IMG/VR virus record: IMGVR_UViG_3300049830_000142
Location: 32,001-96,000 of that record
Origin: a virus
Strand: one strand, 5' to 3'
DNA: 64,000 bases
Shown: one piece after another, positions 3,000 through 23,711 of the stretch
How the letters are laid out: the number at the start of each line of letters is the position of its first letter
Numbering within the stretch: the stretch's first letter is position 1
The notes under the pieces: model-generated
The model's database searches: none
Seen by the model: the letters and a program-made list of their open reading frames with translations, nothing else
What the model was told of the DNA's origin: nothing
Program-made: the position numbers and the translations under genes

Positions 3000-4085
3000 T
3001 TAGTTCCAACCCATGGTGTCGTAAATACCAGGTATTTCTTGCGTAGGTGCTGGTTTAGGCTCCTGGTAAACAGGTTCCTTGATCCCTAGCTCTTTGATCT
3101 TAGCCATGTATTCTTGGTAAGCTCGGTCATTCAGATGCTTGTAGACTGGAGTAGCTAGATCACCAGCACCTGCATTGTTTTTCCAGAAATGAGTGTTACC
3201 ACCTAAAGCAGCCCAACCTGAAGGACTAGTCATAGCTTGCTGAGCTTGAGCGCCAGTATTACTTCTATACCAGCTATACAAATTGTCTAGGCTAGAGTTA
3301 CGAGTCTCAGGATTCATACTCTTGATACCTTCCCTGTTATTCTCTAACCAAGCTGCGTTACCACCGGATTCGTTTACAAAGTCTTGTGCACTTTGAGTTC
3401 CGTGGTTAAGTGCAACCTGACCTGCGGTACCCACGGCTGTTGCTGCTAAAGCTGGACCACCTAACAACATACTTGCCGCTCTACCTCCAACCACTTCAGG
3501 AGCGGCGGTAGCGGCTCCTCTTAACAGACTCTTTCCTAAGATAGGATTACTTGCTGCTGAGGTTAGACCTTTCTGCAACATGTTTTTACCTAGCGTAGGA
3601 ACAGAGCCGAGGAGTTGAGAACCTGAGTCAAGAGCACCACCACCAAATTGTAAAGCTTTGTAACCAGCACCTGCCTGGTTATTAGGATCAAGGGCATCTG
3701 ACATCATGCTTAATCCATTTACTCCTAACATACCACGGTTTAGCCAAGGAGCGACTTTAGAGACACCTGGTAAAGCTTTCATAGAGTTAGCCGCTGCCCA
3801 AGGAACCATTAGCTTCTCTGCACCTTGGTTAGCAAGCTGTGTAGTCTTACCCATAACTGAGTCGGATGGGGCTTCACTGAAATCTGTAGGCTTAGGATCG
3901 TAAGGAGCTTTTGGCATTCCTTTGTTAGCCATAGCATTCAAACCATAACCAGCTAAGCCCAGACCACCAGCCATAGCACCCATTCCTAACGGAGTGGAGT
4001 ACCATGGTTTCTTTTTTTGGGGTTCTACGTTTGCCTGTTTATTCAGCTCAAACAATATACCTTGGTAGAAAGCCGTGTTATTCAT
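3000..4085 (-). CDS. Gly/Ala-rich K-x-A protein, putative ejection/internal protein
   Basis: AFYQGILFELNKQA leader; several Gly/Ala-rich hydrophobic segments. Confidence 0.8.
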   Translation of the reverse strand: MNNTAFYQGILFELNKQANVEPQKKKPWYSTPLGMGAMAGGLGLAGYGLNAMANKGMPKAPYDPKPTDFSEAPSDSVMGKTTQLANQGAEKLMVPWAAANSMKALPGVSKVAPWLNRGMLGVNGLSMMSDALDPNNQAGAGYKALQFGGGALDSGSQLLGSVPTLGKNMLQKGLTSAASNPILGKSLLRGAATAAPEVVGGRAASMLLGGPALAATAVGTAGQVALNHGTQSAQDFVNESGGNAAWLENNREGIKSMNPETRNSSLDNLYSWYRSNTGAQAQQAMTSPSGWAALGGNTHFWKNNAGAGDLATPVYKHLNDRAYQEYMAKIKELGIKEPVYQEPKPAPTQEIPGIYDTMGWN

Positions 4086-4891
4086 GAACGCAATACGTGT
4101 AATGCAACTGCTGACTTAAGCTCTTTATACTTAGTTTCTAGCTCTGGTGGCAAGTTATCAGCGAATTGGATTAGTTCCTTGATTCGATAGTACCATCTGT
4201 CGCCAAGCATAGCTCTTAACGTCATTCTAAAGGTTTCGTCACTTAATTGCAAGCCCTCAACTATCTTCTTTAATCTACGTCTATAACTGTTGGTGTACTG
4301 ATCTATTGTCATACATTTGCCTTGAGTCGGTAATTTCCAGGAATAGAAGAAACGGATATACTTATCTCTGGCTTGTCTAGATAATGGGATATTGCCGATC
4401 AAGTAGTACATATAGGCGTCTTGAGTCTTACGTACTGGTGTCATGAAGATTCGTCCTAAGCCCAGTTCTTCTCCGATAGCCATAAGCTGCTCATTAGATG
4501 TACGCCAAGATTCAGGCAAGGAGTCTTCGTACTTAGCTTTGTATTGTCGGTGGAAGTCGAGGTCAGCTCTCTTCTTAGTTTTGCAATATAACTTGTAATA
4601 GAACTCAGATTGGTCAAAGGCTATCCAATCGAAGGACAAGCTCATCTCAGGCATTTCTACGGCTACGTGAGCGTGCATCTTTCCTTCATCGGCTCTAGTC
4701 ACGACATATACGCCTTTAGGATATAGCAGCTTCAATGTTGAATGTAACTTTGTGATCTTATCACCAAACGCTTTGCTGTCGTAACTTTCCTTTCTAACAG
4801 CCGTGATTAGTATATCACCGATCTGGGCTGGACAGGAAAGTCCCGTGAAGGCTGTTTTTAATTTTTCGACATACTCTTTCCTGTTGTACAT
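4082..4891 (-). CDS. divergent HUH endonuclease (rolling-circle Rep-like)
   Basis: GKMHAHVAV (HUH motif II) after YVVTR; GLGRIFMTPVRKTQDAYMYYL resembles the motif III region. Confidence 0.6.
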   Translation of the reverse strand: MYNRKEYVEKLKTAFTGLSCPAQIGDILITAVRKESYDSKAFGDKITKLHSTLKLLYPKGVYVVTRADEGKMHAHVAVEMPEMSLSFDWIAFDQSEFYYKLYCKTKKRADLDFHRQYKAKYEDSLPESWRTSNEQLMAIGEELGLGRIFMTPVRKTQDAYMYYLIGNIPLSRQARDKYIRFFYSWKLPTQGKCMTIDQYTNSYRRRLKKIVEGLQLSDETFRMTLRAMLGDRWYYRIKELIQFADNLPPELETKYKELKSAVALHVLRS

Positions 4892-4939: not shown

Positions 4940-4969
4940 AAAAAAAAGGAAAACGGGTAAGGTTTTCCT
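4940..4969 (-). terminator. intrinsic terminator ending the leftward paralog operon
   Basis: 8-bp stem AGGAAAAC/GTTTTCCT followed by a T run on minus. Confidence 0.75.
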
Positions 4970-5475: not shown

Positions 5476-5843
5476 TTCATCAATTGTTTGATTAGTTGTA
5501 GATCGTCTAGGCTAATAGACAATCTTAGTTGTTCAGTGCGAGAGTTGTTGTGATAATAAGTAGCGCAGTAATCTTGGACAACCATGCATTCTTTGATAGT
5601 GTTGCATTGCTTCAGCTTAGTTAAGAAGCGTACCATAGCTAGTCCTCGACCGTCAGGTATCTCAAAGGCCCAGGAGGCAGCTTTAGGATCCATTATGAAC
5701 GCGTTTAGTCTCAAGAAGTCATACAGGATGCTCCAGCTATACAAGAAGCTCTGAGAAGCTTTGGTGACAGCATGGATAGTCCTAAGCTTCATCTCAGGAC
5801 TAAGATTCTGGATGTACTCAATGTTGAAGGTTTCGTTGTTCAT
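5472..5843 (-). CDS. hypothetical protein, paralog family
   Basis: FNIEYIQNLSPEMKLRTIHAVTK; RFLTKLKQ. Confidence 0.75.
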   Translation of the reverse strand: MNNETFNIEYIQNLSPEMKLRTIHAVTKASQSFLYSWSILYDFLRLNAFIMDPKAASWAFEIPDGRGLAMVRFLTKLKQCNTIKECMVVQDYCATYYHNNSRTEQLRLSISLDDLQLIKQLMK

Positions 5844-6270
5844 CGGTTAGGATTATGGTTTGAAGACGTTGCAGATCTATCTCTGAAGGAAAGATGTATG
5901 TGAGCTGGGCTTTCTCCCATTCCTGGTCCTTAGAGACGGCTTTGAGATCCTTAGCTCTCTTTAGTTGTCGGAGCTTGATTAGGAAGCGATTGCCTTGTAA
6001 TGAGTCGTCTAATGTTATTCCATTAGGATCGTCATAGAAGTCCTGAGCATCTCTACTATTGAAATCATCCTCATCATCAAAAGAGTAGGTACGGATGTCA
6101 GAGTCAGGAGTGGAAAGAGCTCTGATAAGGTTTAGACATGAGGAATAGGCAGTATGGGTATTGATGTAACTGTCTATGGAACTCAGTTTGGTTAGGGTGC
6201 TGATAAGTCTCATTCTTTCATCAAAGGAAAGGGACTTGATAGAGGGGATATTGAAGAATGGTTTTGGCAT
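5818..6270 (-). CDS. hypothetical protein, paralog family
   Basis: FNIPSIKSLSFDERMRLISTLTK; RFLIKLRQ. Confidence 0.75.
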   Translation of the reverse strand: MPKPFFNIPSIKSLSFDERMRLISTLTKLSSIDSYINTHTAYSSCLNLIRALSTPDSDIRTYSFDDEDDFNSRDAQDFYDDPNGITLDDSLQGNRFLIKLRQLKRAKDLKAVSKDQEWEKAQLTYIFPSEIDLQRLQTIILTDEQRNLQH

Positions 6271-6349
6271 GAGATTAGTACTGGGAAGGGGAATGTGGTA
6301 ATAAAGGTAAAGACGAATCCTCTACTACTAATATCTAAAAAATTGGACT

Positions 6350-6565
6350 TATACGACTCATCACCTCTCCCAACGACTGGGTAAGCAACCATTGCTGGTC
6401 GCCTACCCTTTATCGTCGGGATACTTGGTTAGACTGAGGAACCGTAGCAGGAGATGGTGGACAGAGGTTTTGACACCCCCGCCCACCAATCCCTTCTGCA
6501 ACGCAGAACTCAAGGCTTGCGCCGAGCTCTGCTAGGAGGTCTAACCAAGGACTGTGAGGACTCCC
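6350..6565 (-). ncRNA. candidate structured non-coding RNA, unassigned family
   Basis: Nested helices incl. perfect 11-bp 6424-6434/6539-6549 and 13-bp hairpin 6379-6408; two GCAA tetraloops and G-U pairs on minus. Confidence 0.65.
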
Positions 6566-6573
6566 CGGTAAAT

Positions 6574-6729
6574 TTACTTCGCAGAAGGAGTTACCGTATG
6601 TGCCGTATGGGTCTTGATGATCCCAGGCTGCGCGTCGTTTTGGGGGTTCAGATTGCCCGGATTACGAATAACCCAGCCACCGGCGAACCCACACAGGAGC
6701 ATTATTGAGGCGATAACCGTGAATTTCAT
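6574..6729 (-). CDS. 51-aa protein with N-terminal hydrophobic segment (not in ORF track)
   Basis: MKFTVIASIMLLCGFAGGWVIRNPG...SAK*. Confidence 0.6.
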   Translation of the reverse strand: MKFTVIASIMLLCGFAGGWVIRNPGNLNPQNDAQPGIIKTHTAHTVTPSAK

Positions 6730-6779
6730 GGTCTTAATATTTTCTTACATTGTTTATGTTGCAGTTGGCAGAATACCTT

Positions 6780-6854
6780 CCCCCGGGCTTGTGAAGGCCC
6801 AGAATACTCTGTCAAGACATTATACCGTGTATTAGCCTAGTTCTGGCCCGGGGG
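6780..6854. repeat. imperfect inverted repeat
   Basis: CCCCCGGGC (6780-6788)/GCCCGGGGG (6846-6854) with inner CCAGAA/TTCTGG. Confidence 0.6.
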
Positions 6855-6969
6855 TGTCTAAACCACATATATGTACGCGATAGGCGATATACCCCTCCCC
6901 CTAAGCTTATAATCGGAAATCAAGGTATAATGAATTGAGAAGGGCTTTTATAGCCTAGAAAATTAAAGT

Positions 6970-7131
6970 ATGTCAAATACCCCTCCCCCTGCAAAGGTGG
7001 CCTCGTCCGATCCTTTGTTTGGTCTACGCCCCGACGAAATTAACATCTGCATGATAGACCCTAAGTTACGGGAGAAGGTCTTTCATGCTCTAAACAATCC
7101 CCCTCCCGTAGAAAGCAAAAAAACGACATGA
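6970..7131 (+). CDS. 53-aa hypothetical protein (not in ORF track)
   Basis: MSNTPPPAKV...SKKTT*; ATGA overlap with 7128. Confidence 0.6.
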   Translation: MSNTPPPAKVASSDPLFGLRPDEINICMIDPKLREKVFHALNNPPPVESKKTT

Positions 7132-12484: not shown

Positions 12485-12510
12485 CCCTCCCCTCCCCCTC
12501 CTCTAATTTC

Positions 12511-12706
12511 GGGTTATTCCATGGTATTATGAAATGAGGGTGTAATAGCCTTCGCTGAAAAGCACTGAAGAAACGTGGGTGAGCTAGGATCATAACCTGG
12601 CTCACCTTTCTCTATTGTGGAGAACTTCTTAAGCTAAGTAAGCCATATACACTACCTCGGGTGTATATGATAATAGTCGTTTGAAAGCGGCAAGAGGTCT
12701 TCAGTT
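12511..12706 (+). ncRNA. candidate structured RNA or 5' leader, unassigned family
   Basis: Five tandem hairpins closed by ACTGAAGA(12564-71)/TCTTCAGT(12698-705); G-U pairs on plus. Confidence 0.6.
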
Positions 12707-13009
12707 ATGTCAAACATACAATTCGAAAATTTCATAAGGCTCGCTTTGACTATGCGGGCTGTAAAAAGTGTCGTTAACGGTAAGGCCGACTTCAAAGAGA
12801 TCTCTCGCGTCGCTAGCAGCCTTGTGCGCCATTCGATATCTTTAGATAAACCAGTCATTGAGCTAATTAGCTACTTTCACTATTTTTATAGTCGTGGGCG
12901 CGACACCCGTATCGCCTCATTGATGGCTGTCATGCATGCGCTTCACCCTTTTAATGCTGATGGCAAACCGTTACATATTAGCATAATACCTTTTCAGGAA
13001 TTTGACTAA
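12707..13009 (+). CDS. hypothetical protein
   Basis: ORF directly after the structured element. Confidence 0.65.
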   Translation: MSNIQFENFIRLALTMRAVKSVVNGKADFKEISRVASSLVRHSISLDKPVIELISYFHYFYSRGRDTRIASLMAVMHALHPFNADGKPLHISIIPFQEFD

Positions 13010-16508: not shown

Positions 16509-19466
16509 ATGCGCTATACTGTATTAGACAAAGGCAACTTCAAGAAAGTAGATAAGCTGGACGACGACCATCTATCATTTCCTAGTTCCCGAGACCTATT
16601 TTCCATGCCCAGTAACCTTATCACAGGATTGGGTGGTGTGTCTGGTGGTCGTATTTTGCTAGGTGCCAAGGCTTCACTACAAAGCATTCCTCTAGTCAAC
16701 CCAGAAAGACCTTTAGTAGAAAGCTCAGATGACAATGACAAAGAGAGTACTCAAGAAAAGTTTGGTAAGCATTATCTGTCAGTCACGGCTACAAAACCTG
16801 GTATAGTTGATGAAGTGACTGATGAGCATATCAAAGTAAAGAATAAGGATGGTAGTCACAGTACTTATCAGCTTTACAAGAATTTTAACTTAGGACGTAA
16901 AAGCTTCATTACTAACACTGCGATAGTGAAGGCTGGTCATCAAGTGAAGACAGACGAGGTGTTGGCTCACTCCAACTACACCGACCCTAAAGGTAACATG
17001 GCATTAGGTGTTAATTTGACTACCGCTATCATGCCATTTAGATCCGACAACTTCGAGGATGCTTATGCTGTGACTGAGTCAGGTGCTAAAAAGTTGGCAG
17101 CGGAACAGATGCTAAAATATCATCTAGAAAAGAAATTTGGTGTTGATGCAGACAAGAATAAATTTATTGCGCTATTCCCAAACAAGTATACCAATGATCA
17201 AATCAAAGGTATTGACTCTGATGGTGTAATCAAACCTGGTACTGTAGTTCATGCAGGTGACCCAGTTCTATTAGCTTTTTCTCCTAGAGCACTTAAAAGC
17301 ACAGACTTAGCATTAGGTAAACTAAGCAAAGTATTGAAGCACGCTTTCAAAGATAACTCTGAGATCTGGGACTATGAACATCCTGGTACAGTCGTAGATG
17401 TATCTAAGCACGGTGAGTTGATTACAGTTCACATTAAAACTGAGCGTAGTCTATTACCTGGTGATAAGATTGGTAGTATCTTCGGTGCAAAAGGTGTAGC
17501 CACAATTATACCAGACTCACAATCTCCGACTACTCCTGATGGCAAGCCTGTGGATATTATGCTTAACTCAATGAGCATTACATCTAGAGTAGCCCCAGCT
17601 CTAGCCGTTACACTAGGACTAGGCAAACTAGCTCAAAAGAAAAAGGAAGTGATCAAGATGGACCAGTTCACTAAAGAATCGTCAATTGGTAAAGTTCTTA
17701 AAGTACTGGCCAAGAATGACATTTCAGATACCGAGACTGGTAGGAATATTGAGGCTGTTGTTGGACCTCTTTATTATAATCGTCTTACTCACATCTCTGA
17801 GGACAAGCTCAGTACGAGGTCGCAGGGTACAGGCTACTCGTTCGACATGCAGCCTAGCAAAACGACTGGCGAATCTAGTAAAAGGATCGGTAACCTTGGT
17901 ACTACTGCCTTGCTTAGCCATGATGTTAAACATGTATTGGAAGACATTGGTACCGTTAAAGGTACAAAGAACGATGATTTCTGGAGAGCCCTTAAACTAG
18001 GCCAGACTCCACCACCACCTAAAGTACCTTTCATTTTCAACAAGTTTATTGCTAGCTTACAGTCTGCTGGGGTAAACGTGAAACGAGATGGCAGTGTATT
18101 TAACATCATGCCAATGACCGACAAGGATACGTTGGCTATCAGTAATGGTGAAATCAAAAAGCCTACGATGTTCAAACCTCATCAAGATGAACTAGTGCAT
18201 GAACCAGGTGGTCTATTCGATCCTAATACAGTCGGTATCTTGGGTGACAAGTTCAATCATATTAGTCTTAACCATTCCGTACCTAATCCTATCAGCGAAG
18301 ACTATCTTCGTAAATTGTTAGGAGTCACTAAACTCAAGTTTAATGCTATGGTGGTAGATGGTACGATGGAAAAAGAATTAGGCAAGATGAACCTCGACAA
18401 CAAGATTACTGAAATGCGTCAGTATATCGAGGGCGGTAAAAAGACTAAACGTGATGATGCTGTAAAGATTTTGGAATTTTTGACTACGTTAAAGAAGAAG
18501 GGTATCAAGATTAGCGATTTGATGTTGACCAAGATTCCTATCTTACCAGCACAGTTCAGACCAGCTAGTAAGATGGGTGACGTTGTATTGACTAGCGATG
18601 TAAACAACCTTTACAAAGATCTTATCCTAAATAACAATTCTTTGAAAGATACGGCACATATACCTGAAGAGTTGATCAGCAAACTAAAGCAAGATCAGTA
18701 TGACGGTGTAAAGGCTGTGTTTGGTTTGGGTGATCCTATTAATAAGAAGCATGCTGATAAGAATGTAAAAGGTATCTTAGCTACTATGCTAGGTCTAAAA
18801 GGCGGTACTGCTAAATCAACGATGTTCCAGAGCAAGGTCGTTAATAAATCATTGGACTTAGTAGGTAGAGCAGTTTTGACTCCTGACACTAGGCTAGACG
18901 TGGATCAAGCTAGCGTCCCTCAAGATTTGCTGTGGCAGGTATACAAACCTTTCGTAATTCGTAGATTAGTCATGAAAGGCGTCCCAGCTGTATCTGCTGT
19001 AGACTATGTCAAAAAGCACAGTTCGTTGGCAGTTCAAGCTTTGAAAGAAGAGATGGCTGAGAGACCTGGTATTGTAACTCGTGACCCAGCTTGGCACAAA
19101 TTTAACTTGATGGGTTTTCATCTCATCCCTAATCCTAATCCTAAGGACAAGACACTAAAACTAAACCCATTAGTGTTCAAAGGATTCGGTGCTGACAACG
19201 ACGGTGACCAGCTAAACATCCACGTACCGGCTACTGAAGAAGCTAGGAAAGAAGTATTGGCAAAAATGTTACCTAGCAAGAACTTGTTATCAGCCAAGTC
19301 ATTTAGCCCAGTACTCATTCCATCAAACGAATCAGCTCTAGGTTTATATTCGCTTAGCACTGAGAAGAATACTAAAGCAGCCCGTAAATATAAGACGGAG
19401 GCGGAGGTGGTGAAAGCCTATAACTCAGGTCACTTAGAAGAGGGTGACCAGATAGAAATAGGATAA
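16509..19466 (+). CDS. rpoBC: RNA polymerase beta(C-half)-beta'(N-half) fusion, catalytic subunit
   Basis: beta motifs NFEDA, GDKIGSIFGAKG, LTHISEDK, KVPFIF; beta' motifs PILPAQFRP, SDVNNLY, DLVGRAV, RDPAWH, ADNDGDQ. Confidence 0.92.
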   Translation: MRYTVLDKGNFKKVDKLDDDHLSFPSSRDLFSMPSNLITGLGGVSGGRILLGAKASLQSIPLVNPERPLVESSDDNDKESTQEKFGKHYLSVTATKPGIVDEVTDEHIKVKNKDGSHSTYQLYKNFNLGRKSFITNTAIVKAGHQVKTDEVLAHSNYTDPKGNMALGVNLTTAIMPFRSDNFEDAYAVTESGAKKLAAEQMLKYHLEKKFGVDADKNKFIALFPNKYTNDQIKGIDSDGVIKPGTVVHAGDPVLLAFSPRALKSTDLALGKLSKVLKHAFKDNSEIWDYEHPGTVVDVSKHGELITVHIKTERSLLPGDKIGSIFGAKGVATIIPDSQSPTTPDGKPVDIMLNSMSITSRVAPALAVTLGLGKLAQKKKEVIKMDQFTKESSIGKVLKVLAKNDISDTETGRNIEAVVGPLYYNRLTHISEDKLSTRSQGTGYSFDMQPSKTTGESSKRIGNLGTTALLSHDVKHVLEDIGTVKGTKNDDFWRALKLGQTPPPPKVPFIFNKFIASLQSAGVNVKRDGSVFNIMPMTDKDTLAISNGEIKKPTMFKPHQDELVHEPGGLFDPNTVGILGDKFNHISLNHSVPNPISEDYLRKLLGVTKLKFNAMVVDGTMEKELGKMNLDNKITEMRQYIEGGKKTKRDDAVKILEFLTTLKKKGIKISDLMLTKIPILPAQFRPASKMGDVVLTSDVNNLYKDLILNNNSLKDTAHIPEELISKLKQDQYDGVKAVFGLGDPINKKHADKNVKGILATMLGLKGGTAKSTMFQSKVVNKSLDLVGRAVLTPDTRLDVDQASVPQDLLWQVYKPFVIRRLVMKGVPAVSAVDYVKKHSSLAVQALKEEMAERPGIVTRDPAWHKFNLMGFHLIPNPNPKDKTLKLNPLVFKGFGADNDGDQLNIHVPATEEARKEVLAKMLPSKNLLSAKSFSPVLIPSNESALGLYSLSTEKNTKAARKYKTEAEVVKAYNSGHLEEGDQIEIG

Positions 19467-21479: not shown

Positions 21480-21826
21480 TGAACTTCACTTTACTACAGT
21501 CTTTCTTGGAGCAGTCTTACAACTCAGCCAATCCTAAGATTAAAAGAGCAGCTGAGACTTTGACTGACCAGATGGTGGCCGCTAAAGAGACGGAAGAGAT
21601 TGAGCAGCCGACACTACATTCTGAGGAACGTAATCAGCCGTTGAATAACAGACCTAAGGACGAGATCGATAAACATCTATCTACTTGGATGCCTGATATC
21701 GTAAAACCTGATCCTGAAGTATCTGAATTCGGTAAAGCGGCTTCTATGTTTGACTTATACAGTAAAAAGTTGAATACTAAGCCTACACTATTTCAAAGAT
21801 ATGGCTTACACAACAACGGTAGGTAA
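21479..21826 (+). CDS. hypothetical protein
   Basis: ORF with KRAA, GKAA motifs. Confidence 0.7.
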   Translation: MNFTLLQSFLEQSYNSANPKIKRAAETLTDQMVAAKETEEIEQPTLHSEERNQPLNNRPKDEIDKHLSTWMPDIVKPDPEVSEFGKAASMFDLYSKKLNTKPTLFQRYGLHNNGR

Positions 21827-23711
21827 AATCCTACTGAAACATTACAGTCCGGCGGCGACACACGCATTCCTAGATAGTAAGGAGCTTGACAAAAAGAACA
21901 TCGGAGCTTTCTTTGCTAACTTAGCTGAGAAGCATCCGGAGGAGTACATGAAGACTGTCTCTGACCTAACGAGACTAGGCTTCGAGTCAGCTACTAGATT
22001 AGGTAGCACAGTTAGACTAGGCGACCTTGCTCCCCCAGATTTCAAGGACGAGGAGTTCAAAAAACTTCACGCCGAGATCGCAGGTATTCAGGCTAAGAAA
22101 CTTACTAAGGTAAAACAGAATGACGAAATCATTACTGCCCTTAACAAGTTCTCAGGCGACATTGACAAAAGGTTAGTTGAGCATGGTGTCAAAGAAGGTA
22201 AGACATTGGCGAAGGTTGTTAGGGCCGGTGCTCGTGGTAGCCCATCCCAGTATCGTCAAACTATTTTTTCTCCCGTAGCTGTCAATGATAACAAGGGCAG
22301 CGTTCTTACTGATTTCGTAATCGACAGGTCTTTTGCTGAAGGCCTCACCTTACCACAATACTTGGCGCATACCTTCGGTGCTCGTCAAGCTTCTGCAGCT
22401 ACTAAACTAGCTGTTGCTGACGCTGGTTACTTAGGTAAACAATTGGCCAGAGCTGGTATGACGATGAAAGTCGAGATGCATGACTGTGGTACTGATAGTG
22501 GTATTGCAATCAAAGTCGAAGACAAAGATTACCTCGGTACTTATTTAGCCAAGGCGGTTGATAAATATAATCATAACAACGAAGTCACTTCTTCGATGTT
22601 AGCTGACCTCAAAACAAAAGGGGTTGCTGACATTATTGTCCGTAGTCCTATCACTTGCCAAGCTAGTCACGACTCTCATCCAGGTGCAGTATGCCAACTA
22701 TGCGCAGGTAGACGTGAAAAAGGATTACCTGAGATTGGATCTTTCTTAGGAGTTGTGGCTGGAACTACTTTAGCTGAACCGCTATCACAAGGTATGTTAA
22801 ACTCCAAACACTCTGGTGGTTCAGCGAGAACTGCTACGTCATTTGGCGGTTTCAAATACGTTAACCAACTATTCAACATACCTGACTCTTTTGTACATGA
22901 GGCTCCGCTAGCTAACCATGACGGTGTTATTGAAGAAGTCAGACCAGCTCCTCAAGGTGGTAACTATGTCGTAGTCAAACATGTTAACGGCAAGACTGAA
23001 GAACACTACGTTCATCCTGACCTCAACGTATTCATCAAACCTGGCACTGCTGTCGAAGCCGGTGATGTATTAAGTGATGGTATTCCTAATCCAGCCAAGA
23101 TCGTTAAACACAAAGGTATTGGTGAGGGTAGAGTCTACTTTGCTAACGCAGTAAAGAATACATTTGAAAACAGCCAGCTAGGTGGTATCAACAAACGTAA
23201 CTTTGACATCATCAGCAAAGGTATCATTACGCACGTCAAAATTACCAACCCTAAAGGGTTGGGCGACCACTTGCCAGATACTATCGTCAATTACCATAGT
23301 TTAGAGAAGGCTTATACTCCTAGACACGATAGCCGCAAAGTTAGAGTAGACCAGGCAAAGGGATTATACTTGGAAATTCCTGCATTACACTATACAATAG
23401 GTACTAAGCTAACAAGCCATATGATGGACAACCTAAAGAAGCATGGTGTATCATATGTGACAGTACACGATGACAGTCCTGGGTTTGAACCTGAGATGCA
23501 ACGTTTGCTAGATGTTCCAGCCCACGAGCATGATTGGATGCACGCGCTGTACAGCACAAATTTGGAACGCAGATTAGTTAAAGCAGTTAATACTGGAGCT
23601 TCAAGCAGTATTGCTGGCCCTTCGCCTATACCTGGCCTGGCTTATGCCGTCGGCTTTGGTAAGAAGTCTGAGGAAGTCGAGCAAACTGAAGAAGCCTTAA
23701 GTTTCGAATAA
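21801..23711 (+). CDS. rpoC: RNA polymerase beta' C-terminal subunit
   Basis: TTVGKILL; bridge helix GLTLPQYLAHTFGAR..AGYLGKQL; DCGT; RSPITC...CQLCAG; trigger loop AEPLSQGMLNSKHSGG. Confidence 0.92.
   Translation: MAYTTTVGKILLKHYSPAATHAFLDSKELDKKNIGAFFANLAEKHPEEYMKTVSDLTRLGFESATRLGSTVRLGDLAPPDFKDEEFKKLHAEIAGIQAKKLTKVKQNDEIITALNKFSGDIDKRLVEHGVKEGKTLAKVVRAGARGSPSQYRQTIFSPVAVNDNKGSVLTDFVIDRSFAEGLTLPQYLAHTFGARQASAATKLAVADAGYLGKQLARAGMTMKVEMHDCGTDSGIAIKVEDKDYLGTYLAKAVDKYNHNNEVTSSMLADLKTKGVADIIVRSPITCQASHDSHPGAVCQLCAGRREKGLPEIGSFLGVVAGTTLAEPLSQGMLNSKHSGGSARTATSFGGFKYVNQLFNIPDSFVHEAPLANHDGVIEEVRPAPQGGNYVVVKHVNGKTEEHYVHPDLNVFIKPGTAVEAGDVLSDGIPNPAKIVKHKGIGEGRVYFANAVKNTFENSQLGGINKRNFDIISKGIITHVKITNPKGLGDHLPDTIVNYHSLEKAYTPRHDSRKVRVDQAKGLYLEIPALHYTIGTKLTSHMMDNLKKHGVSYVTVHDDSPGFEPEMQRLLDVPAHEHDWMHALYSTNLERRLVKAVNTGASSSIAGPSPIPGLAYAVGFGKKSEEVEQTEEALSFE

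Follow-up and report, generated by a model that had tools for sequence, protein, structure and literature searches.

We consider it probable, at roughly 0.8, that the minus strand of this phage genome carries a real RNA-level element of ~215 nt at 6347..6573, a coordinate range that includes an irregular outer closing stem around a best-determined core at 6366-6551. Since the element lies between a stop codon and a U-run in an early operon, a 3'-UTR or intercistronic RNA is its best description, and this fits better than a stand-alone non-coding RNA gene or a plain leader. The first-pass annotation had proposed an undescribed non-coding RNA or leader RNA. The RNA level, the minus strand and the lack of a known family stand; however, a free-standing RNA does not, because the start of the element is the stop codon of the upstream gene, ORF51. 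The element belongs to no described family and is an orphan candidate, not yet a family. We infer its transcription, promoter, 3' end, processing and any regulatory pairing.

The window analyzed here, 64,000 nt in length, comprises bases 32001-96000 of a 134,588-bp IMG/VR virus record with a CheckV completeness estimate of ~62%. Coordinates marked "genome" refer to the record. A multisubunit RNA polymerase is among the products of the phage genome, with a beta-beta' fusion encoded at 16509-19466 and the C-terminal part of beta' at 21801-23711; an SNF2 helicase and a lysozyme are also encoded. By RNA polymerase, its closest named relatives, Salmonella phage Arash and three Vibrio phages, are remote (~30% identity), Arash being the nearest (31%). 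The helicase shares 35% identity with Pseudanabaena phage PA-SR01.

Fold and strand of the element

RNAfold gave −118.3 kcal/mol for 6340-6575 on the minus strand (z = −9.08), and 0 of 200 dinucleotide shuffles were as good, whereas the plus strand of the same stretch reached only −82.9 kcal/mol (z = −2.95). The minimum free energy (MFE) structure of the minus strand contains 86 pairs (44 GC, 31 AU, and 11 GU) with a mean pair probability of 0.92, and all 11 G-U pairs become A-C mismatches on the plus strand. The same asymmetry was observed for the three-way-junction domain alone (z = −7.9 on the minus strand vs −3.8 on the plus strand) and for the hairpin domain alone (−39.5 kcal/mol and z = −9.0 on the minus strand vs z = −4.6 on the plus strand). 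The assignment of the element to the minus strand, originally made from apparent mismatches and loop sequences, is borne out by these energies and by the 11 G-U pairs.

In a GC-corrected fold scan of both strands of the 134.6-kb record, the element ranked first among 2,688 windows (−5.3 SD). Other fold-energy outliers of the record were genome 9151-9450 on the minus strand (−4.6 SD) and genome 110851-111150 on the plus strand (−4.3 SD). The structure ends sharply at the ORF51 stop codon; the ORF51 region is without structure, and the neighboring stretch 6566-6800, which is equally GC-rich, is unstructured (z = −0.3). The element is a GC-rich island (~54%) in a long intergenic region of a genome with a GC content of ~42%. 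GC-rich islands in long intergenic regions are a signature for finding structured non-coding RNAs (PMC6429828, PMC8723152). The element is present once in the record, and we rejected a MITE or other repeat element on the basis of this single copy.

Read 5' to 3' on the minus strand, the element is closed by an irregular, AU-rich outer stem (5' strand ~6550-6573, 3' strand ~6347-6367). Domain 1 (6424..6549) is a three-way junction of helices P1, P2, and P3. P1 consists of 11 perfect bp (6539-6549 with 6424-6434) and closes the domain, and the junction strands at 6533-6538 and 6435-6443 are pyrimidine-rich. P2 (6503..6532) is a hairpin of 12 pairs with a UU bulge, a GCAA tetraloop at 6517-6520, and a helix probability of 0.99. 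P3 (6444..6502) is a long hairpin whose ~24 pairs form three stacked segments below a GUCAAA loop (6469-6474); its upper 13-bp stem contains three G-U pairs (6482/6461, 6480/6463, and 6478/6465). Domain 2 (6367..6421) is a 23-bp hairpin built of a 10-bp helix, an AAA/A internal loop, a 13-bp helix, and a GCAA tetraloop at 6392-6395. After the outer stem comes CCAA and then, 4 nt past the stem, a U6 run (6337..6342), which is a possible weak stop or 3' end.

The helices that the first-pass annotation had listed were found in the sequence. They include the perfect 11-bp helix 6424-6434/6539-6549, which was also returned by a repeat search, the 13-bp hairpin 6379-6408 inside 6368-76/6413-21, the GCAA hairpin 6509-6526, and the helix 6455-62/6481-88, in which an A-C position on the plus strand is a G-U pair on the minus strand. 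Both loops read as GCAA on the minus strand recur in the MFE structure. The multi-helix fold is supported; however, the proposed inner junction (6445-50/6529-34 with 6494-99/6503-08) is the second-best fold, a near-isoenergetic alternative that lies 3.8 kcal/mol above the MFE. The MFE structure instead pairs 6503-6511 with 6524-6532 (P2) and 6447-6450 with 6496-6499 (the base of P3), which results in a simple three-way junction.

We noted the sequence ATACGACTCA at 6351-6360 on the plus strand, antisense to the 3' tail of the RNA, with ~0.26 chance matches expected in the record. Its 10 nt are also found in the T7 promoter core. No T7-like RNA polymerase was seen in the phage.

Neighboring genes, operon layout, and traces of conservation

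The element sits in a divergent intergenic region. ORF51 (6574..6729, minus strand), the stop codon of which abuts the RNA, encodes a small single-pass membrane protein with an N-terminal membrane helix. It shares 72% identity with the ENA metagenome protein P0004 (682-bp contig), with conservative changes, in-frame indels, and a retained transmembrane segment, and this comparison indicates that ORF51 is a real conserved gene. The public gene call has an 84-aa ORF at 6454-6708 on the plus strand, across the RNA, and missed ORF51 on the opposite strand. No homologues of the 84-aa ORF were found, and it is antisense to a conserved gene; the earlier view that no credible ORF covers the element was therefore correct. 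The spurious call over the RNA, with the real 51-aa gene overlooked, represents an annotation pitfall.

The first gene 3' of the RNA, ~70 nt past the U-run, is ORF150 (5818..6270, minus strand), an ORFan whose product is acidic and has an invariant basic helix. Two further small genes and a canonical terminator near 4950 come after it. ORF51, ORF150, and the operon proteins showed no Pfam, PHROGs, NCBIfam, or PADLOC family, and a search of ORF150 in the ESM Atlas provided no lead.

A candidate leftward sigma-70-type promoter is located at 6947..6976 on the minus strand (TTGACA at 6971-6976, an 18-nt spacer, and TATAAA at 6947-6952), and a second −10-like TATAAT is present at 6819-6824 on the same strand; both are consensus matches only. 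A promoter of its own was not evident directly 5' of the RNA. The operon layout proposed here follows the sigma-70-type early promoters and GC-hairpin/T-run terminators found elsewhere in the phage. Near-consensus TTGACA-N17-TATATT promoters with an ATG 5-8 nt later were observed at window 4929 (minus strand), 10679 (plus strand), and 11766 (plus strand), as well as at genome 28342 (minus strand) and 133396 (plus strand). This short promoter-to-ATG distance implies leaderless early mRNAs. These promoters are often directly 3' of a GC hairpin with a T7-8 terminator and the motif AGCTA.

Across the 144 ORFs of the whole record, Shine-Dalgarno sequences were not enriched before start codons (17% vs 13% background), and the sequence 5' of the starts was A-rich and G-poor. 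These features hint at a host that does not depend on Shine-Dalgarno pairing. Shine-Dalgarno and anti-Shine-Dalgarno readings of the CCUCC junctions and of the GGAGAGGUGAU tail were rejected because the phage genes lack this enrichment.

A terminator scan called no intrinsic terminator on the minus strand at U6, where the preceding outer stem is AU-rich and irregular, and the canonical terminators of the phage (GC hairpin with a T-run) are unlike the surroundings of the U6 run. We did not retain an intrinsic terminator as an explanation of the element because no GC-rich hairpin directly precedes the U-run.

Two other structured stretches were observed in the phage. A second element at genome 12505-12760 (minus strand; z = −7.0 on the minus strand and −4.0 on the plus strand) lies in a divergent intergenic region of ~1 kb and ends at the start codon of a leftward gene. 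It contains two GAGC-GCAA-GCUU hairpins and a CCAAYUUUUUAG end, the same end as that of the main element, and showed no Rfam match. A covariance model, R1, was built from the three-way-junction domain of the main element as a single sequence, and it scored only 9.7 bits (E = 0.19) against this second element. Paralogy between the two was rejected on this score, and the features common to both are the GC-GCAA-GC hairpins and the CCAAYUUUUUAG end only. A third structured stretch, which is intercistronic, was noted at window 12485-12710 on the plus strand (z = −3.85); it is preceded by a C-rich box that resembles those at 6890 and 6978, and it ends at the next ATG.

The location of the main element raises the issue of whether it may be a purely structural cis element that protects the ORF51 message from 3' exonucleases, provides an RNase III-type processing site, or forms a leaky transcription insulator. 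We regard this as possible but doubtful. RNase III processing separates cistrons in the phage T7 early region, and the ~23-bp coaxial helices here (P3 and domain 2) may be RNase III-type sites that separate ORF51 from ORF150. A structural role is in keeping with a position exactly between two cistrons that starts at a stop codon, with two helices of approximately two turns each interrupted by small internal loops, with the U6 run that comes next, and with the structures at window 12485-12710 and genome 12505-12760. However, a three-way junction with a second domain, two GNRA caps, and 86 pairs is far beyond known stabilizers and T7 RNase III sites, and a structural role leaves the complementarity between the P3 apex and a box in the promoter region unexplained.

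The only relative of ORF150 in a search of 5.8 and 1.8 billion proteins was P0003 (66-69% identity), from a Logan contig of 1,982 bp. P0003 matches ORF150 at 18 of 18 positions in the block GNRFLIKLRQLKRAKDLK. Another candidate relative of ORF150, P0006, was discarded as a repeat artefact. The start of P0003 was miscalled 39 codons early, and in the resulting extension the DNA upstream of the homologous gene has been translated by accident. This extension begins with MVAYPV, exactly the residues that the domain 2 13-bp hairpin specifies in its 3' arm; it reads NFLD over the U-run, consistent with the bases around U6, and then tracks the ORF150 5' UTR. The order and spacing of the RNA, the U-run, and ORF150 are kept in the P0003 locus. 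As judged from this translated DNA, the 3' arm of domain 2 appears to be conserved in the relative, which represents a trace of conservation. The two G-U positions of this arm fall at third codon positions and, thus, G-U to G-C changes would be invisible there. Traces of the element were detected in one relative only and at the amino-acid level only.

Nucleotide-level searches did not extend this result. Blastn against GenBank phages returned no homologous DNA. Exact and degenerate hairpin patterns returned nothing or one chance match in a coding region from IMG/VR, and the degenerate pattern returned three chance matches from JGI metagenomes. Scans anchored on ORF150, ORF51, the helicase, and the RNA polymerase found no homologous locus in IMG/VR, metagenomes, or GTDB genomes; their sole matches were an unrelated helicase N-domain, which was not syntenic, and a chance match to a transmembrane helix. 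Tblastn of ORF150 and ORF51 against phages returned nothing. The only R1 match in its own record was the element itself, and searches of Salmonella phage Arash and two IMG/VR records were negative.

These searches bear on the possibility that the structure is due to chance or is non-functional, for example, as a decayed remnant acquired with a GC-rich ORF51 module. The single copy and the failure to retrieve homologous DNA from IMG/VR, JGI metagenomes, GTDB genomes, and GenBank phages speak for this possibility. Nevertheless, we consider it very improbable given that 0 of 200 shuffles were as stable, that no stronger outlier was found in 134.6 kb, that the fold is strand-specific with two GNRA caps, and that one hairpin arm persists in a relative despite ~30% divergence.

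The element may alternatively be the 5' leader of the ORF150 operon, either as a ligand- or protein-responsive attenuator or as an antitermination RNA similar to lambda nut or HK022 put. The best-conserved part of ORF150 is its invariant basic helix, and this protein might bind GNRA-capped hairpins. The conserved order and spacing of the RNA, the U-run, and ORF150 in one relative, the 18/18 identity of the ORF150 block, the canonical terminator after the operon near 4950, and the second leftward leader element with two similar GC-GCAA-GC hairpins all point in this direction. The setting is also reminiscent of lambda nut, HK022 put, and the T7 RNase III hairpins in being structured, within an early operon, 3' of a host-type promoter, and 5' of more early genes; moreover, the next gene encodes a small protein with a basic helix, much as the N gene follows nutL. 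However, the element is many times larger than these sites and is branched, and known put and nut RNAs are 15-70 nt. No alternative terminator/antiterminator pairing is present around the U-run, the long perfect helices are unlike riboswitch aptamers, ORF150 has no recognizable RNA-binding family, and R1 fails to link this element with the second one. We therefore regard a leader function as unlikely. A boxA/boxB-like pair was not found in the rightward operon.

Comparison with known RNA families

Rfam 15 (4,227 models), which includes riboswitches, ribozymes, 6S, SRP, RNase P, Y RNA, pRNA, OLE/GOLLD/ROOL, HEARO, and IS605-orfB, gave no match in the whole window at gathering thresholds. A local Rfam search at E <= 10 yielded only chance miRNA and snoRNA matches (<=16.9 bits), and ARAGORN detected no tRNA or tmRNA in the window. 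The earlier failure to match the element to tRNA, tmRNA, or known families was thus reproduced by systematic scans.

Several specific identities were also considered and rejected. The whole 134.6-kb record (~62% complete) contains no RVT_1 (reverse transcriptase) match and the neighboring proteins are without a Pfam family, which argues against a retron msr-msd or other RT-associated non-coding RNA. TnpB/IscB omega RNA and IS110 bridge RNA were dismissed because no TnpB or IS110 transposase match was found in the record. The absence of TROVE (Ro protein) matches in the record and of Rfam Y RNA matches disfavors a bacterial Y RNA. Hammerhead and K-turn readings of UGAUGAG in the tail had no Rfam match and no partner box. 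The over-representation of the P1 9-mer TTGGTTAGA was a coding and paralogue effect.

Among described RNAs, the phi29 pRNA has a similar architecture (RF00044; PMC4201828): it is likewise encoded by a phage and of similar size, its three-way junction is closed by a helix of the 5' and 3' ends, and a distinct hairpin domain follows on the 3' side. This RNA is 174 nt long, the first 120 nt are sufficient, and its 3' domain is dispensable (PMC4201828). However, the element gave no RF00044 match even at E <= 10. The loops here (GCAA, GUCAAA, and GCAA) are non-complementary, whereas pRNA needs 4-5 nt of mutual complementarity for kissing, and the genome here is that of a large phage with a multisubunit RNA polymerase in contrast to a ~20-kb phi29-like phage.

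This likeness is relevant to the idea that the element is excised from the early transcript and acts in trans, as a scaffold or decoy in a ribonucleoprotein (with a protein partner or as a mimic that titrates a host factor), or as an undescribed ribozyme. Paired 5' and 3' ends, a three-way junction, GNRA caps, and extreme stability are typical of stable functional RNAs, and the combination of a ~125-nt three-way-junction domain and a ~55-nt 3' hairpin domain resembles phi29 pRNA (PMC4201828). On the other hand, no pRNA or ribozyme family matched even at E <= 10, the non-complementary loops preclude pRNA-like kissing, reverse transcriptase, TnpB, IS110, and Ro are all absent from the record, and no promoter of its own is evident directly upstream. 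We consider a trans-acting role to be distinctly unlikely.

The element also resembles the orphan non-coding RNA candidates from GC-IGR and DIMPL studies (PMC6429828, PMC8632094, PMC8723152) in being a GC-rich island that is multi-helix, non-coding, and capped by GNRA loops. However, those motifs were defined by covariation over many representatives, whereas the present candidate comprises one sequence and an amino-acid-level trace of a second.

Staphylococcus RNAIII with hld and the enterobacterial 3'-UTR sRNAs are 3'-UTR-derived or dual-function regulatory RNAs. As in these RNAs, a small-peptide gene here precedes a structured non-coding part with a U-run at its end, and the apex of a hairpin is complementary to a 5' leader. 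In contrast to them, a 13-bp stem conceals most of the complementary box, and the sole strong target is its own leader. The element is also far larger than typical 3'-UTR sRNAs. A comparison with hok/sok type I toxin mRNAs reveals a protein of ~50 aa, an N-terminal membrane helix, and a long and very stable 3' structure in common; however, ORF51 has no Hok or other Pfam match. A hok-like fold-back was rejected because the duplex between the 3' tail of the RNA and upstream 6577-6940 was no better than those of shuffles (p = 0.44). No plus-strand promoter for an antisense RNA was found near 6270-6350.

The P3 apex, the promoter-region box, and a possible function

The P3 apex box (6466..6481, minus strand), which reads 5' CGGGGGUGUCAAAACC on the RNA, has a partner in the promoter region at 6849..6864 on the plus strand (CGGGGGTGTCTAAACC, with the 9-mer core GGGGGTGTC). 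A repeat search showed that 15 of the 16 nt of these two stretches are complementary. A 16-nt complementarity was not obtained in any of 300 dinucleotide shuffles of the upstream 213 nt (shuffle maximum, 13), and the duplex energy of 6849-6864 with the apex ranked ~3 of 26,910 genome windows after the exclusion of self-hits. The P3-box complementarity is non-random. The isolated apex-box duplex is at −30 kcal/mol vs −27 for the P3 hairpin. Forcing the apex-box pairing within one transcript costs +24 kcal/mol relative to the MFE because the junction is lost, and a stable stem takes up most of the box in P3. Should the −10 at 6819-6824 be the active one, the true start site may be downstream of the leader box.

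Besides the RNA copy, GGGGGTGTC occurs four times, always on the plus strand and always in long intergenic regions, with 0.21 expected per strand. The sites beyond 6849-6864 are genome 12974, 13174, and 130404. The other large divergent region holds two of the copies, and one copy precedes a leftward gene by 37-45 nt. These other three sites share 9 nt only and are unremarkable as duplex targets, while the RNA copy is the sole one in the opposite orientation and is extended to 15/16 nt. The box may be explained in three ways: the apex pairs with C-rich boxes of leftward leaders, the box is the DNA site of a regulator, or the apex arose from a duplication of the box. A DNA-binding-site reading accounts for the GGGGGTGTC box equally well.

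Extended to the whole element, this last reading is that of a DNA-level feature, in which the 16-bp inverted repeat and the GGGGGTGTC boxes serve as regulator sites (with looping over ~370 bp), an origin, or the ends of an invertible segment, or in which the hairpins act in single-stranded DNA. The four GGGGGTGTC boxes in one orientation agree with it, as do the maximum of the cumulative GC skew at the element and the z-score of −5.9 that the minus strand retains with DNA folding parameters. However, the boxes account for 16 nt and not for a 215-nt fold, and the strong strand asymmetry and 11 wobble pairs indicate RNA. The skew change coincides with the gene-orientation switch. No resolvase or integrase is present in the record, and the inverton idea was dropped. 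The neighboring 269-aa ORF at 4082-4891 (minus strand) with the motif HAHV, a candidate HUH endonuclease, found no support for this label in Pfam, PHROGs, NCBIfam, PADLOC, or PDB sequence searches, and its single-sequence AlphaFold model (pLDDT 47) was too poor to judge. A DNA-level explanation of the element is quite improbable.

Other repeats were observed in the divergent promoter region. The C-rich box ATACCCCTCCCCCT is found on the plus strand at 6888-6902 and, as an exact copy, at 6976-6990, with a variant at 7096-7107 (spacing of 88 and 120 nt); a related copy is present at 12487. An inverted repeat at 6780-6788 and 6846-6854 reads CCCCCGGGC/GCCCGGGGG. An 18-nt inverted pair at 6812-6829 and 6921-6938 contains GGTATAATG on both strands, suggesting putative back-to-back divergent −10 elements.

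Returning to a 3'-UTR or intercistronic RNA, we propose the following course of events. A leftward early transcript would start in the divergent promoter region, with 6947-6976 as the candidate promoter. This transcript would encode the 51-aa membrane protein and then fold, right after the stop codon, into the ~215-nt two-domain RNA. The U6 run would act as a weak stop, with partial read-through into ORF150 and two small genes up to the terminator near 4950. The compact fold, in which the element's own 5' and 3' ends are paired, would create a nuclease-resistant module that may either stay on the ORF51 message or be cut out as a stable RNA. This module may function as a riboregulator of its own operon. 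The P3 apex, the stem of which is weakened by three G-U pairs, would give up its pairing within P3 and pair with the complementary 16-nt box of the promoter-proximal leader. We tentatively favor this riboregulation through the P3 apex as the role of the stable module, although we hold it at less than even odds, and the purely structural role and the ORF150 leader or antitermination role come close behind it. More speculatively, the element may represent a new class of phage riboregulators, in which a dual-function early transcript combines a small membrane peptide with a large, nuclease-resistant two-domain RNA and a metastable, G-U-rich apex alternates between its stem and C-rich leader boxes to set the level of early leftward operons, or a released ribonucleoprotein scaffold or ribozyme; we consider this to be rather unlikely.

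The element is well delimited and experimentally tractable: it is ~215 nt long and very stable, has a clear strand, and is located between two conserved genes. The link between the P3 apex and its box provides a concrete regulatory hypothesis. Little is understood of large uncultivated phages that have a multisubunit RNA polymerase of their own, and their non-coding RNAs are almost unknown. If the fold is conserved, the element would define a new family of RNAs linked to early gene expression in phages.
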